From Eubacterium sp. AM49-13BH (lineage in GTDB: Bacteria > Bacillota_I > Bacilli_A > Erysipelotrichales > Erysipelotrichaceae): a stretch of DNA of 64,000 nt. The DNA lies in assembly GCA_963650865.1 (NCBI GenBank), contig CAVJMM010000002.1, positions 700-64,699 of the forward strand, read 5' to 3'. The translations under genes were made by a program, and so were the position numbers. Positions 5,259 to 36,267 of the stretch are shown piece by piece (the stretch's first letter is position 1; every line of letters begins with the position of its first letter). Below the pieces are notes generated by a model. It was not told the origin of the DNA. It saw nothing but the letters and a program-made list of their open reading frames with translations, and made no database searches.

Positions 5259-5834
5259 ATGAAAAAAGTAATGGTATTAGTAGTGGAAGGGTTCGAAGAA
5301 GGAGAAACATTAGAAACAGTTGATGTTTTGAGAAGATGTGGAATCGATTGTGATAGTGTGGGATTAGTACAGAAACAATGTACAGGTTGTAATGGTATTA
5401 CAGTTCTAACAGATTATGTTTTAGAAGAAGTTGATTCAAATCAATATGATATGGTTGTACTTCCTGGAGGGATGCCAGGAGCAGAGCATCTAAAAAATGA
5501 TCAAAGAGTATTAGAAATTGTTCGAAGATTTGATGCAGAGAAAAAATATGTTTGTGCGATTTGCGCTGCACCAATGGTGCTAGCAGAGGCTGGTATTTCT
5601 AGTGGAAGAACATTAACAAGTTATCCAGCAGATAAATATAGAGCGTTATTTGAGGATGCAAATTATATAGATGATCAAATTGTTGTATATGATGATAATC
5701 TCATTACTTCTAGAGGACCAGCAACGGTATTGCCATTTGCGTATGCTTTAGCGGAAGTGTTAGGCGGTAATACAAAAGTAGTGAAGGAAAGAATGTTGTA
5801 TAACAAACTTGTTCAAAGTTATTATATCAACTAA
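5259..5834 (+). CDS. DJ-1/PfpI (ThiJ) family protein
   Basis: 191 aa. LPGGMPGA and the nucleophile-elbow motif AICAAP typical of DJ-1/PfpI. Strong RBS AAAGGAGAAGAGG. Confidence 0.85.
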   Translation: MKKVMVLVVEGFEEGETLETVDVLRRCGIDCDSVGLVQKQCTGCNGITVLTDYVLEEVDSNQYDMVVLPGGMPGAEHLKNDQRVLEIVRRFDAEKKYVCAICAAPMVLAEAGISSGRTLTSYPADKYRALFEDANYIDDQIVVYDDNLITSRGPATVLPFAYALAEVLGGNTKVVKERMLYNKLVQSYYIN

Positions 5835-11995: not shown

Positions 11996-12676
11996 ATGAC
12001 AAAATTGAATGAGGAATTCTTAACGATTGTTAAGAAATATGGTGTTGAAAAGAAATATCAAAAGAATGAAATGATTTATCGTACATATGATGATGCGAAT
12101 GATATTTTTGTTGTGCAAAAGGGTAGAATCAGAACATACGCAATAACCAAAGATGGTCAAGAAGTGACTTATGAAATATTAGCAAAAGGAAAGATCTTTG
12201 GAGAAACAAGTTTATTGAATCAAGGGAAAAGACCAGTATATGCAAGTGCAGTTGTAGATACGATCTTATTACAGATATCCAAGAAAGATGTAGAAGAATT
12301 AATTATGCAGTATCCTGCATTTAGTATGGCATTTATTAAAATGATTGCGGAAACGAATGTATATTTATGTGATCGTTTAAGAAATAATCAAGATTATAAT
12401 CGCTATCAAAAAGTAATTTATTTTTTGTTGGATACAACAAAAGAAGATGCAGTGGATAAAGAAATTTCACATGGTGTTTTACCATATACACATGAAGATA
12501 TCGCAAATTGTGTGCAGTTAAATAGAGTTACGGTTTCTAGAGTGTTGAATGAATTAGAAAAGAAGGGATATATTCGAATGAAGTATAAGAAGATACAAGT
12601 TTTAAAGAGAAAAGAATTAGAAGAAGAGTACTTGTCAATAACCCACGGTCCAAGGACCAGTGGGCTTGAGGTGTAA
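11996..12676 (+). CDS. Crp/Fnr family transcriptional regulator, with 3' end running into the inserted element
   Basis: cNMP-binding-like beta-barrel (GRIRTYAITKDGQEVTYEIL...IFGE) and C-terminal HTH (EDIANCVQLNRVTVSRVLNELEKKGYI). The last roughly 12 codons (..ITHGPRTSGLEV*) are read from the GC-rich left-end hairpin of the insertion. Confidence 0.8.
   Translation: MTKLNEEFLTIVKKYGVEKKYQKNEMIYRTYDDANDIFVVQKGRIRTYAITKDGQEVTYEILAKGKIFGETSLLNQGKRPVYASAVVDTILLQISKKDVEELIMQYPAFSMAFIKMIAETNVYLCDRLRNNQDYNRYQKVIYFLLDTTKEDAVDKEISHGVLPYTHEDIANCVQLNRVTVSRVLNELEKKGYIRMKYKKIQVLKRKELEEEYLSITHGPRTSGLEV
12642..12664 (+). repeat. Left-end (LE) subterminal imperfect hairpin
   Basis: CCCACGGTCCAAGGACCAGTGGG has arms CCCACGGTC / GACC(A)GTGGG with one bulged A. 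It matches 14348-14370 except at two positions that face each other at the top of the stem. Confidence 0.7.
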
Positions 12677-12975
12677 ACCTTAAGCTCGGTTGATAAGCCT
12701 CAGTGCCTGTCGACAGGCAGACACTACGTTATCCAAGAATGTCCGCTCCAGCGGACAGGGATAGGTACCAAGGGATACTTCACTAGTCCCTTGCTCTACG
12801 GTATTGCATTAAACATCTCTGAGGGTAGGAGAAGTGTGTAATACATCAAACCTTGGATAACATTGGCGAAGTGAACTACCCGCGTTATGCGGAGAAGCTA
12901 CATCTTTGAATGTAGAAGGCGTAAGCCAGTGCCGAAAGGCACACATAACTACGACAGTAGTAGAAAGGAGGCACC
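12642..12975 (+). ncRNA. Candidate IscB omegaRNA (HEARO-type structured RNA). The 5' guide is expected at or just left of this span.
   Basis: A GC-rich non-coding stretch directly upstream of iscB. It has many perfect local stems: 12704-12719, 12740-12757, 12769-12793, 12880-12892, 12898-12915, and 12929-12942 with a GAAA loop. A 10-bp long-range helix pairs 12728-12737 with 12852-12861. The ORFs here are short and lack an RBS. Confidence 0.65.
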
Positions 12976-12977
12976 AT

Positions 12978-14327
12978 ATGATGGTTGCAGTGTTGAGTTC
13001 TACAGGCATCAGATTGATGCCAATATCCTGCTACAAAGCAAGACGACTACTCAAGAAAGGGAAAGCTGAAATCGTGCAGTACAGACCTTTCACAATTAAA
13101 TTAACTCAACGAAGCACAGGAAATACTCAGCCTATTGAGTATTGCTGCGATACAGGATATCAACATATCGGAATTTCTATCAAATCTGAAAAGCATGAAT
13201 ATGTTGGAATCCAAGTGGATTCTCTCAAGGATGAGAAATCCAAACACAAGGATTGCTTAGTTTACAGACGTACTAGACGCAATCGTAAAAGATACAGAAA
13301 GCCTAGATTCAACAACCGTAAGGCTTCCAAACCAGAAGGATGGTTAGCACCAAGTATCGAGCACAAGAAAGCTATCCATCTGTATTGGATTAAGAAGTAC
13401 ATGGCAGTTATGCCTATTACAAATATTACATTTGAGATGGGTGAATTCGATACACAGTTGCTTAAGGAAATCGAGGAAGGAAAGCCAATTCCTGTTGGCA
13501 CAGATTACCAACATGGTGAACGCTACGGTATTGAAACACTTAGAAGTGCAGTATTTGCACGAGACAACTACACATGCCAGTGTTGTGGTAGTACAAAAGG
13601 ACCGTTTTGTGTACATCATGTAGTACCACGGAGTGAAGGCGGTACAAACAGAATGTCAAACCTAGCTACAGTGTGTACAGGTTGCCATACACCACCAAAT
13701 CACAAATACGGTGGTAAGTTGTGGAAGCTCAAGCAAGATTGGCATCCATTACAGTTTAAAGGTGCAACCTTTATGACTTCTGTTAGATGGCAGATGCTTG
13801 ATGCACTCAAAGAAGAGCTCCATGATGCAAGGATTCATTTGACATACGGCGCTACTACTAAAGGTGCTAGAAGAATCCTACATATGCAGAAGTCACACAT
13901 TAACGATGCGTATTGTATGGGAATGTTTCATCCAAAACATCGCACTCCACACTATCTGTACTCTAAAAAACGTAGAAACAACAGAATTCTCTCTAAGTTC
14001 TACGATGCAAAGTACATCGATAGTAGAGATGGCTCTAAAAAGTCTGGTCAGCAGTTGTTCAATGGTAGAACAAAGAGAAACCACGATTTAGATACCGAAA
14101 ACTTGCATGTATACCGGGCAAAGAAAGTATCTAAAGGTAGAACTTCTGTTAGAAAGAAACACTATCCAATACAACCAGGTGACTGTTTGTATGCAAATGG
14201 TAAATATGTAATCACCAATGGTTGCCATAATAATGGCACCAGGGTCTTATGCAATGGCAAATCCATTGCAGTCAAAAATGTATGCTTGCACAAATATGCA
14301 GGAGGATATACATATGTCAAATTATAA
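12978..14327 (+). CDS. iscB: IscB RNA-guided endonuclease (PLMP, split RuvC, bridge helix, HNH, C-terminal TAM-interacting-like domain), 449 aa
   Basis: AAAGGAGG at 12964-12971 precedes the ATG at 12978. RLMP at residues 12-15. RuvC-I CCDTGYQHIGISI (D58). Arg-rich YRRTRRNRKRYRKPRFNNRK. RuvC-II ITFEMGEFD (E153). HNH CQCCGS..VHHVVPRSEGGTNRMSNLATVCTGCH. RuvC-III KSHINDAYCM (H307, D310). Confidence 0.9.
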   Translation: MMVAVLSSTGIRLMPISCYKARRLLKKGKAEIVQYRPFTIKLTQRSTGNTQPIEYCCDTGYQHIGISIKSEKHEYVGIQVDSLKDEKSKHKDCLVYRRTRRNRKRYRKPRFNNRKASKPEGWLAPSIEHKKAIHLYWIKKYMAVMPITNITFEMGEFDTQLLKEIEEGKPIPVGTDYQHGERYGIETLRSAVFARDNYTCQCCGSTKGPFCVHHVVPRSEGGTNRMSNLATVCTGCHTPPNHKYGGKLWKLKQDWHPLQFKGATFMTSVRWQMLDALKEELHDARIHLTYGATTKGARRILHMQKSHINDAYCMGMFHPKHRTPHYLYSKKRRNNRILSKFYDAKYIDSRDGSKKSGQQLFNGRTKRNHDLDTENLHVYRAKKVSKGRTSVRKKHYPIQPGDCLYANGKYVITNGCHNNGTRVLCNGKSIAVKNVCLHKYAGGYTYVKL

Positions 14328-14347
14328 GAAAGGAGACGGCGTTTCCT

Positions 14348-14370
14348 CCCACGGTCTAAAGACCAGTGGG
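14348..14370 (+). repeat. Right-end (RE) subterminal imperfect hairpin
   Basis: CCCACGGTCTAAAGACCAGTGGG lies 21 nt after the iscB stop. It has the same arms and bulged A as the LE hairpin. C/G in LE is replaced by T/A at the two facing positions. Confidence 0.7.
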
Positions 14371-14397
14371 TTTCCACGCCGAAAGTTTTATGAAAAA

Positions 14398-14417
14398 ATG
14401 GGAACCTGAGTTCCCAT
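14398..14417. terminator. Hairpin terminator at the 3' end of the convergent alpha-galactosidase gene
   Basis: ATGGGAAC-CTGA-GTTCCCAT is a perfect 8-bp stem preceded by AAAAAA on the + strand. It overlaps the stop of the minus-strand gene at 14417-14419. Confidence 0.55.
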
Positions 14418-15988
14418 TAGAGGATGCTTGTATCACAAGTGTATGTATTTGTTTTGCCATCTAGATCATACTGGATAGTGAGTATTTTATCATACATGTT
14501 TGTATGAATATTTGTAGCCGTTGATAAATGACGATAGTGATGGTATTTGTCAATTTGATCAGATGTATAGTTAGATGGATTATCACTTGTTAAGAATACA
14601 CCACCTAATAATGCATCGATCGTAATTAACATTTCTTTTTGTTGTTCTGTTAATTTTAGGTTTTCATCTCTTAAGAAAAATACATCAGGATCAGATAGAT
14701 AAGCTCTTGTATTGATCTGTCTTCTGAAGATTGTATTAGCTAAAGAGTGTTTTGTGGATACGCGTTCTCTATGAAATAAACGCATATACCAAACATCATT
14801 CCAATCTAGTCCTACATCACATCCTACACGATTGTATTCGAAGATACCAAGTGTTGAACAAAATGGAACACCGCAACCTAATATTGGATGATCTTTACAG
14901 AGCTCTTTTAAGAATAGAATTGCCCGTTTCATTTTATGTGCTCTTGATTCGGATTCAGTTCCAAATGGAGCTGCAGCGTATAAGAAATCTAATTTCACAA
15001 GATCAAAATTCCATTCATTAAAGATTTGATCAAAAACATCTTTTAGATATTGGATTACTTCAGGATGATCAATATCTAATGCATAGGCACCATCCCAATT
15101 ACATCCAACAAACCATGGTTCCCCATTAACTTTTAATAACCAATCTGGATGTTCTTTTACAAGTTTGGAATGAACAGACGCAAGAAATGGTGAAACCCAA
15201 ATACCTGCTTTGAAATGTGCTTGATGAATTCGATCCGTTTCATAGCGTAATCCATGAGGAAACTTAGCAGAATCATATTCTAACCAATCCCCCGTGCATG
15301 GTTGCCATCCATCATCGATTTGGAATAAATCATTTTCTTGAAGAATGATTTTACATCCTTCTAAATCTTCTTGGATTGTATCTGTGGATATATTTTCATA
15401 ATGGTTATACCAACTTGAATATCCATATAACTTAGGTCGTGTTTGTTTTGGAATGTTCATTGCGTTGAACCATCCATCAAATACTTCTTGTTCACTGCCA
15501 ATTTGTTCATAAATATCAAAGATTGTATATGTTCCATCAAACGTTACACCTTCACAGTCTTTTTCAATTGTGAGTGTATTATTTTTATAGTTGAAGATTG
15601 TATATCCTAGATCTTCATTGATGGATGCAAGTAAATGATATTTGTTACCTTTTCGAAGATACATGTATGTATATCCATGAAAGATTCCTTTGTGTTTTGG
15701 ATATGCATGAAAATGATAGTCACCATATCGATCAAAATGATATTGATCAATTAATTTTTGAGGGACATGTTGTAGACCTCTGAAAGAATCAGATATTTTC
15801 ATTTCTTTATTGTATGTCCATGTTTGATAACCATTGAAGAATAGATAATCTGTAGTAGAAACTTCTAATGAAGTGGTAGCTTTGATAGATTGAATTGTTC
15901 CGTGGATTTCTTCTGTGATATTTTGAAGCGTATCAGTTGTATATTCAATTGTTTGTATATCTGTTTGAATTTGTATTTTCCAAGTCAT
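14417..15988 (-). CDS. Alpha-galactosidase-like glycoside hydrolase (GH36/melibiase family)
   Basis: FQIDDGWQ motif and KLDF nucleophile-region motif typical of the melibiase fold. The gene sits in an operon with a GPH sugar symporter. Confidence 0.7.
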   Translation of the reverse strand: MTWKIQIQTDIQTIEYTTDTLQNITEEIHGTIQSIKATTSLEVSTTDYLFFNGYQTWTYNKEMKISDSFRGLQHVPQKLIDQYHFDRYGDYHFHAYPKHKGIFHGYTYMYLRKGNKYHLLASINEDLGYTIFNYKNNTLTIEKDCEGVTFDGTYTIFDIYEQIGSEQEVFDGWFNAMNIPKQTRPKLYGYSSWYNHYENISTDTIQEDLEGCKIILQENDLFQIDDGWQPCTGDWLEYDSAKFPHGLRYETDRIHQAHFKAGIWVSPFLASVHSKLVKEHPDWLLKVNGEPWFVGCNWDGAYALDIDHPEVIQYLKDVFDQIFNEWNFDLVKLDFLYAAAPFGTESESRAHKMKRAILFLKELCKDHPILGCGVPFCSTLGIFEYNRVGCDVGLDWNDVWYMRLFHRERVSTKHSLANTIFRRQINTRAYLSDPDVFFLRDENLKLTEQQKEMLITIDALLGGVFLTSDNPSNYTSDQIDKYHHYRHLSTATNIHTNMYDKILTIQYDLDGKTNTYTCDTSIL

Positions 15989-26927: not shown

Positions 26928-27515
26928 ATGTTACAATTTTCACATATGAAAGAAAAGAAGTGTGCCATCTTCCTCGCAGATGGCTTTGAAACATGCGAGG
27001 GATTGATTGTAATAGACTTGTTAAGAAGAGCAGGGATTACAATTGATATGATATCGATGAATGATGATTTAACAGTCACGACATCTCAAAAAGTTGTTCT
27101 ACAAGCTGAGAAGCTTTATCAAGATATTGACGTCAAAGATTATGATGTATTGATTTTACCAGGTGGCAAAGTTGGTACTGCGAATCTAGAAGCGTGTGAT
27201 TCTTTGGAAAAAGCATTAAAAGAACATTTTGAAAGTGGAAAACTAACATGTGCTATTTGTGCTGCCCCATCTATTTTTGGACATCTAGGCATGTTAGAAG
27301 GAAAGAAATATACTTGCTTCCCAGACTTTGATGGAAATTATTGTGGATTCTATCAACAAGAGTTAGCAGTCAGTGACGGGAATTTGATTACTGGTCGTGG
27401 TATGGGTGCGACTTTAGAATTCGCTCGAGAAATACTAAAACAGTTGATTGATGAAGAAGCATTAAAGAAGGTTCAACACGGAATTCAATACGAACATACA
27501 TTCCGTAACGAATAA
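26928..27515 (+). CDS. DJ-1/PfpI (ThiJ) family protein, second copy in the window
   Basis: LPGGKVG and AICAAP motifs, with the same layout as 5259-5834. The start could be the ATG at 26946. Confidence 0.8.
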   Translation: MLQFSHMKEKKCAIFLADGFETCEGLIVIDLLRRAGITIDMISMNDDLTVTTSQKVVLQAEKLYQDIDVKDYDVLILPGGKVGTANLEACDSLEKALKEHFESGKLTCAICAAPSIFGHLGMLEGKKYTCFPDFDGNYCGFYQQELAVSDGNLITGRGMGATLEFAREILKQLIDEEALKKVQHGIQYEHTFRNE

Positions 27516-36095: not shown

Positions 36096-36168
36096 TGGAG
36101 CTAAGGGGAATCGAACCCCTGACCCCCTGCTTGCAAAGCAGGTGCTCTCCCAGCTGAGCTATAACCCC
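36096..36168 (-). tRNA. tRNA-Ala (anticodon UGC), CCA not encoded
   Basis: The reverse complement reads GGGGTTATAGCTCAGCTGGGAGAGCACCTGCTTTGCAAGCAGGGGGTCAGGGGTTCGATTCCCCTTAGCTCCA. It has a G3:U70 pair, anticodon loop TTTGCAA and T-loop GGTTCGATTCC. Confidence 0.92.
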
Positions 36169-36190
36169 AGGATACATTTTTGAGAATAAA

Positions 36191-36267
<77 letters not shown>

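Follow-up and report, generated by a model that had tools for sequence, protein, structure and literature searches.

We found that the open reading frame (ORF) at 12978-14327 on the plus strand of a 64,000-nt stretch of Eubacterium sp. AM49-13BH (contig CAVJMM010000002.1; hereafter the window) very probably encodes a full-length IscB, an RNA-guided DNA endonuclease of the OMEGA type in which both the RuvC and the HNH sites appear intact. The gene lies with an omega-RNA in a non-autonomous element of the IS200/IS605 type and would take part in a homing cycle as for GstIscB and OgeuIscB; we put the probability of this reading at about 0.9. IscB proteins are transposon-borne RNA-guided DNA nucleases of OMEGA systems, and Cas9 is thought to descend from them. 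The locus is an uncharacterised, standard member of a well-described family, for which the nuclease, the omega-RNA, the IS200/IS605 home, and the role in transposon retention have already been published.

Profile and sequence searches agree on the family, with scores well beyond chance. The NCBIfam equivalog for "RNA-guided endonuclease IscB" (NF040563, guided_IscB) matched amino acids 4-315 with 293.9 bits against a cutoff of 175, the Pfam model RRXRR was matched over its whole length (154.4 bits; cutoff 25), and Pfam HNH covered residues 200-238 (37 bits). At E ≤ 1e-10, 4821 homologues were found, the closest of which come from metagenome-assembled genomes (MAGs) of gut Lachnospiraceae and Erysipelotrichaceae. 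Several homologues carry the NCBI name "RNA-guided endonuclease IscB," and the exact 449-aa protein is already present in NCBI; a look-up of the identical protein in the contig index gave no record. Among solved structures, the best sequence matches were all IscB (OgeuIscB, TbaIscB, HfmIscB, and OrufIscB), followed by IsrB and then by type II-D and other Cas9s.

Some homologues stood out for other reasons. P0011 has 558 aa, about 100 aa above the family norm; the family profile ranked it first (818 bits), yet its alignment covers no more than 75% of the query, and it may be a fusion or contain an internal insertion. Four others (P0174, P0189, P0195, and P0198) are named [quoted passage not shown] which looks like a propagated misannotation. 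The 45 contigs that carry P0075 were considered as that many separate insertions; this was rejected, as they represent one orthologous locus across many gut samples.

Translation from the ATG at 12978 gave 449 aa and a stop codon with no internal stop, in agreement with the original prediction, a reading of the letters alone that had described an uninterrupted IscB ORF. The motif positions given there were also right: RLMP occupies residues 12-15, D58 and E153 are encoded by codons 13149-13151 and 13434-13436, C200 to H237 span nt 13575-13688, and the codons for H307 and D310 start at 13896 and 13905, respectively. The mechanically longest ORF begins with a TTG at 12906. We favour the ATG because a Shine-Dalgarno sequence, AAAGGAGG, precedes it at 12964-12971 and because the N-termini of homologues read MMVAVLS or MVAVLS.

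A phmmer alignment to OgeuIscB (PDB 7xht), the kind of check that had been proposed for the catalytic assignments, paired the RuvC residues D58, E153, H307, and D310 with D61, E193, H340, and D343, and the HNH residue H214 with H247. The first four are the RuvC catalytic residues of OgeuIscB, and H247 is its conserved HNH residue, the counterpart of Cas9 H840 (Kato et al., 2022, PMC9640706). In a different IscB, GstIscB, the substitutions D58A/H209A/H210A abolish activity (Meers et al., 2023). The N-terminal motif RLMP, which had been called PLMP-like, aligned to the PLMP of OgeuIscB at residues 14-17; the motif is conserved at L13, M14, and P15 and varies within the clade at its first position.

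These residues are kept across the family. In 18 homologues of 60-84% identity, the catalytic residues, N228, H237, and the four cysteines of the zinc knuckle are all invariant. In an alignment of 129 homologues reaching down to 38% identity, the catalytic residues and the CxxC...CxxC zinc knuckle are invariant or at least 90% conserved, with C200, C203, C233, C236, H213, H214, and H237 invariant. A complete HNH domain lies inside the RuvC split, between RuvC-II and RuvC-III, where it had been placed, and its presence and conservation distinguish the protein from IsrB. The Arg-rich bridge helix, YRRTRRNRKRYRKPRFNNRK (residues 96-115, between RuvC-I and RuvC-II), was likewise borne out: the structural model described below has a helix at 86-102, and R100, R101, R105, and R107 are conserved.

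Pairwise ratios of nonsynonymous to synonymous substitution rates (dN/dS) over the whole ORF were 0.10-0.12 against three independent relatives, from which we conclude that iscB is under purifying selection. The claim of catalytic intactness in both nuclease domains therefore holds as far as the residues go, all of them being present and conserved; catalytic function itself is what the sequence leads one to expect. A protein that acts on its own as an HNH homing endonuclease, or an IscB that has degenerated to binding RNA and DNA without cleavage (for example, as a regulator), would agree with older homologue annotations as "HNH endonuclease," and catalysis is not provable from sequence alone. 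Such a protein would hardly be expected to keep every catalytic residue of RuvC and HNH along with the cysteines that bind zinc, a full-length IscB architecture with a confident fold, and a dN/dS of about 0.1 over the entire ORF, and we consider this explanation very improbable.

For the structure, 38 diverse IscBs translated from related loci were used in a profile search that yielded the 129-sequence alignment, and this alignment was the input for AlphaFold (AF2). An earlier model from a shallow alignment of the 18 close homologues had a predicted local distance difference test score (pLDDT) of 52 and was discarded. The model from the 129 sequences reached a pLDDT of 85.8 and a predicted template modelling score (pTM) of 0.74. 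Its top eight Foldseek matches in the PDB were all IscB-omega-RNA-DNA complexes (E values from 2e-25 to 9e-19), followed by DtIsrB, HfmIscB, type II-D Cas9, and larger Cas9s. Modelling the protein on its own, another of the proposed checks, thus led back to IscB complexes as the nearest known folds.

The C-terminal region deserves separate comment. The original prediction had located a Gly/Asn/Cys-rich tail where the domain that interacts with the target-adjacent motif (TAM) lies in solved IscB structures. In the model, strands at 403-406, 409-412, 422-425, 428-431, and 435-439 are followed by a terminal strand at 443-448 (pLDDT 85-90 here), which resembles the five-stranded barrel plus C-terminal strand of the TAM-interacting (TI) domain (Kato et al., 2022, PMC9640706). 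The placement of the tail is therefore supported by the model, and the C-terminal ~50 residues are a predicted TI domain; the description of its composition fits one sequence only, as the tail cysteines are not conserved. When the C-terminal 149 aa alone were searched against the PDB with phmmer, no relevant match was found, so the TI assignment rests on the model and on the collinearity of the profile with OrufIscB.

Between RuvC-I and RuvC-II, the protein has only the bridge helix and a short linker; a REC lobe is absent, and 449 aa falls within the ~400-500 aa expected of an IscB. The same RuvC-bridge helix-HNH architecture would be found in a miniature Cas9 belonging to a CRISPR system, such as a type II-D-like effector, and type II-D and other Cas9s do appear lower in both the sequence and the fold searches. 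This alternative to a transposon-borne IscB is effectively refuted. A REC lobe is lacking, the N-terminal domain is of the PLMP type, a HEARO RNA is present, the IscB equivalog score is well above its cutoff, and the gene sits between IS200/IS605-type ends at a site for which a vacant allele exists (see below). Moreover, no CRISPR array was found in the window by TRF and a direct-repeat search, and neither cas1 nor cas2 is among the neighbouring genes. The choice of IscB over Cas9 made in the original prediction is thus upheld.

The RNA partner of this IscB is encoded directly upstream. The only match in the window to the Rfam family HEARO (RF02033) covers the full model and ends 96 nt before the iscB ATG (Table 1). 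HEARO was found upstream of iscB in all 16 of the occupied related loci scanned and was absent at both of the empty-site loci. The RNA probably extends beyond the Rfam model: the motif GAAGGCGTAAGCC is kept across 15 related loci, conservation runs to about 12945, and the minimum free energy (MFE) fold of 12614-12980 (z = -6.8) shows the hairpins of this 3' extension. Such conservation fits the remark that RF02033 lacks downstream structural elements (Meers et al., 2023).

In IscB systems, the guide is encoded beyond the transposon boundary, 5' of a scaffold that is itself bounded by the right end (RE) of the transposon (Meers et al., 2023). By this rule, the ~16-20 nt at 12614-12633 are the predicted guide segment of the omega-RNA. 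They lie directly 5' of HEARO model position 1 and are unpaired in the MFE fold. Transcription into an iscB omega-RNA must enter from upstream, and upstream genes are biased toward the iscB orientation (Meers et al., 2023). The gene upstream in the window, which encodes a Crp/Fnr-family regulator, has the same orientation as iscB and is the probable source of a guide-bearing transcript.

The boundaries of the element are set by a natural empty site. With 12634-14389 removed, the window aligned to a contig carrying this site (L093) over 3946 nt with no gaps and at 99.1% identity. Because the empty site equals the two flanks joined exactly, we take the element to be 12634-14389 without target-site duplication; an ambiguity of 2 nt arises because flank and element both end in TT. 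A second assembly (GCA_963637595.1) carries the identical insertion at the identical site. The GC content of the element (42%) exceeds that of the window (33.9%), which is consistent with a horizontal origin.

The ends are of the IS200/IS605 type, with no terminal inverted repeats. The window contains exactly two matches to the 23-nt imperfect palindrome CCCACGGTCYAARGACCAGTGGG, both on one strand and one at each end of the element, where shuffled sequences lead one to expect none. The TnpA strand is the minus strand of the window, such that the canonical RE is at the left and the canonical left end (LE) at the right of the element as numbered here. In relatives, the hairpin at the place of the LE has a different sequence and retains its pairing. 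In a relative of 85% identity (L009) and in six copies within one Lachnospiraceae MAG, homology starts at GTCAAT/CTCACT, which corresponds to HEARO position 1, and stops just before ATGA. For multicopy relatives, indels limited what an ungapped boundary script could show, and JGI metagenomes searched for the exact pattern of the 33-nt LE hairpin gave no matches.

The Lachnospiraceae MAG in question (JAKVNF01) has at least 10 copies of a ~50%-identical IscB element in one genome (L023-L032). Two of these (L031 and L032) match residues 1-368 only. The sharp boundaries of the copies suit a study of the ends of this family.

In the Crp-family gene, the element now separates the final sense codon (L213) from the TGA stop. 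The insertion lengthened this ORF from 213 to 226 aa, and the 13 extra residues, SITHGPRTSGLEV, are read from the omega-RNA scaffold. We predicted beforehand that precise excision would restore a 213-aa protein ending in ...EEEYL and followed by the TGA stop. Consistent with this, the closest Crp-family homologues, which are uninterrupted and at 99, 82, and 80% identity, all have 213 aa and end in ...EE(F/Y)L. On the other side, the element abuts the distal end of the T-tract of a terminator (TTTTTTCAT|) that serves a convergent melibiase-family gene, and this terminator was left intact.

The neighbouring genes, which encode the Crp-family regulator, the melibiase-family hydrolase, an MFS transporter, and a GH2 hydrolase, are ordinary chromosomal genes. 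Elsewhere in the window, two adjacent tRNA genes at 36096-36267 on the minus strand are the sole Rfam matches besides HEARO. Two DJ-1/PfpI-family paralogues (5259-5834 and 26928-27515, both on the plus strand) are unrelated to the IscB finding.

Table 1. Features at and around the iscB element, in window coordinates.
Feature	Position	Strand	Basis or remark
Crp/Fnr-family regulator gene	11996-12676	+	Pfam cNMP_binding and HTH_Crp_2; same orientation as iscB
Predicted guide segment, ~16-20 nt	12614-12633	+	Final codons of the Crp-family ORF; host DNA adjoining the element
Non-autonomous IS200/IS605-type element	12634-14389	+	1756 bp, ±2 nt; empty-site alignment
Omega-RNA scaffold core (Rfam HEARO, RF02033)	12634-12881	+	126.4 bits against a gathering score of 83; E = 5e-27; model positions 1-211 of 211
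Subterminal imperfect palindrome CCCACGGTC-CAAG-GACCAGTGGG, canonical RE	12642-12664	+	Doubles as the first omega-RNA stem; cleavage point 8 nt outside
Probable 3' extension of the omega-RNA	12882-12945	+	Three small hairpins; conserved motif GAAGGCGTAAGCC at 12915-12927
Ribosome-binding site (Shine-Dalgarno) AAAGGAGG	12964-12971	+	6 nt before the ATG; read from the sequence; kept in related loci
iscB ORF	12978-14327	+	449 aa; profiles, structure matches, conservation, AlphaFold model, dN/dS
iscB domains (residues)			PLMP ~1-50; RuvC-I (D58); bridge helix ~86-116; RuvC-II (E153); HNH 200-242; RuvC-III (H307, D310); WED ~320-395; predicted TI ~397-449
HNH domain, key residues			H213/H214, N228, H237, Cys4
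Subterminal imperfect palindrome CCCACGGTC-TAAA-GACCAGTGGG, canonical LE	14348-14370	+	Inside the outer stem CGGCGT/ACGCCG; 19 nt from the element boundary
Flank ATGAAAA	14390-14396	+	ATGAA is the candidate TAM/TnpA target motif; TGA is the native Crp-family stop; also seen at the empty site
Terminator hairpin of the convergent melibiase-family gene (14417-15988, minus)	14397-14418	-	Terminator scan; also in empty sites

The flank that follows the element points to a likely TAM, ATGAA. The same motif, or ATGAC, also follows related elements, namely, L009, L010, six of the JAKVNF01 copies, and two Stecheria copies. Read on the minus strand, ATGAA becomes TTCAT and adjoins the canonical LE; for GstIscB, 5'-TTCAT-3' serves as the TAM, and it also flanks ISGst5 (Meers et al., 2023).

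From these parts, a homing cycle can be proposed. Transcription entering from the Crp-family gene would yield an RNA composed of the last ~16-20 nt of host DNA, as guide, and the scaffold, and IscB would bind this guide-scaffold RNA. A TnpA acting in trans may excise the element and leave the rejoined flanks ...GAAGAAGAGTACTT|ATGAAAAA, in which the guide target is followed by the 3' TAM ATGAA. IscB would then cut the vacant site, with HNH acting on the target strand and RuvC on the non-target strand, and the element would be restored by recombination with a sister copy in which it is still present. We propose cleavage of the vacant site because the rejoined donor site, GAATTAGAAGAAGAGTACTT followed by ATGAA, would consist of the guide target and the TAM; the most likely function of this IscB is such cleavage, which may drive re-copying of the element.

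Published systems offer close parallels. GstIscB of ISGst5 from Geobacillus stearothermophilus (Meers et al., 2023) also resides in a non-autonomous IS200/IS605-family element that contains only iscB and an upstream omega-RNA, with the scaffold starting at the transposon RE and the guide in the flank. As far as the published description allows the two to be likened, the RuvC aspartate is again D58 and the HNH domain again has a pair of histidines, and the TAM there is complementary to the flank here. In contrast, GstIscB belongs to a Geobacillus host rather than to the gut Lachnospiraceae and Erysipelotrichaceae in which our closest relatives were found, and the TAM at our locus is a candidate read from flanks.

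OgeuIscB (PDB 7xht, 7utn, 8csz, and 8ctl), among the top structural matches, has the same order of domains (PLMP, RuvC-I, bridge helix, RuvC-II, HNH, RuvC-III, WED, and TI) and catalytic residues that align one to one. It differs in length (496 aa compared with 449 aa), in overall sequence (identity of ~19-23% in Foldseek alignments), in having ~30 residues near its positions 118-146, between bridge helix and RuvC-II, that are missing in our protein, in its PLMP motif where ours reads RLMP, and in its TAM, which is NNRR (Kato et al., 2022, PMC9640706) compared with the likely ATGAA here. OrufIscB (PDB 9nvu) is the sole solved IscB that aligned through the C-terminal WED and TI region (profile 118-447 against chain 260-598), although the deposited protein is an engineered REC-swap variant with an inserted REC domain. 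IsrB (DtIsrB, PDB 8dmb) shares the RuvC fold, bridge helix, PLMP domain, and omega-RNA but lacks the HNH domain present here. Cas9 shares the RuvC fold and bridge helix but possesses a REC lobe and works with a CRISPR/tracrRNA system, neither of which is present at this locus.

Several observations weigh against an active IscB in a homing cycle. The N-terminal motif is RLMP, not PLMP. The template-modelling (TM) score of our model to RNA-bound structures is only ~0.5; a multidomain model that lacks RNA and has a mobile HNH domain would be expected to score in this way, and this value is not residue-level proof of a TI domain. A promoter scan upstream of the guide found seven promoter-like sites where 8.6 were expected, which is not above chance. 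Finally, the 64-kb window yielded no Y1 tnpA, either in Pfam searches of 14 small ORFs (122-197 aa) or in a six-frame scan for the HUH...Y motif. We call the element non-autonomous because only the omega-RNA and iscB fit within it and no Y1 tnpA was found in the window. It may have lost its mobility, or it may rely on a transposase from outside the window.

This last point leads to a different explanation, in which an intact, conserved gene sits in an immobile relic, the genome has no TnpA, and IscB is kept for a host benefit or only transiently, with no homing cycle in operation. Besides the missing transposase, a relic would be in line with the single copy of the element and its hairpins in 64 kb and with the insertion being fixed at the same site in the second assembly (L089). 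It would also accord with the rarity of a nearby transposase in general: only ~1.5% of iscB genes are near a tnpA, and ~98% of iscB loci are non-autonomous (Meers et al., 2023). However, the element is polymorphic for presence and absence between strains with 99.1% identical flanks, both of its end hairpins are intact, its iscB ORF is under strong purifying selection, and a related element is multicopy within one genome. Furthermore, the search for tnpA covered the 64-kb window only. We regard an immobile relic as possible though rather unlikely and prefer an IscB that still serves the retention of its element.

The vacant allele of the sister strain raises a further, more speculative point. 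It reads GAATTGGAAGAAGAGTTCTT-ATGAA (L093 3620-3640) and differs from the predicted guide at two of 20 nt, corresponding to window positions 12619 and 12630. The difference at 12630 is 4 nt from the putative TAM and causes Y212F in the Crp-family protein, and comparison with the homologues of 80-82% identity shows both protospacer changes to be derived. In total, two of the 35 flank differences fall in the 20-nt protospacer, and the whole 638-nt regulator gene contains three differences. Given a background divergence of 0.84%, the post hoc Poisson probability of the protospacer changes is ~0.013 for a single comparison. Such a pattern could arise if a homing IscB element were in natural conflict with a vacant allele that resists it, but we consider this reading doubtful and give it little credence.

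The practical value of the locus is modest. It offers a compact, apparently functional IscB of 449 aa with a predicted guide position, a likely TAM, and element boundaries set by a natural empty site, and is thus a clean candidate editing nuclease for testing, as well as a tidy natural case of the donor-joint logic known from GstIscB. If the conflict with a resistant vacant allele were real, the sister strain would provide field evidence that vacant-site cleavage by IscB selects for escape mutations, and expression of the guide would be tied to the Crp-family regulator of the host, the stop codon of which was displaced by the insertion.

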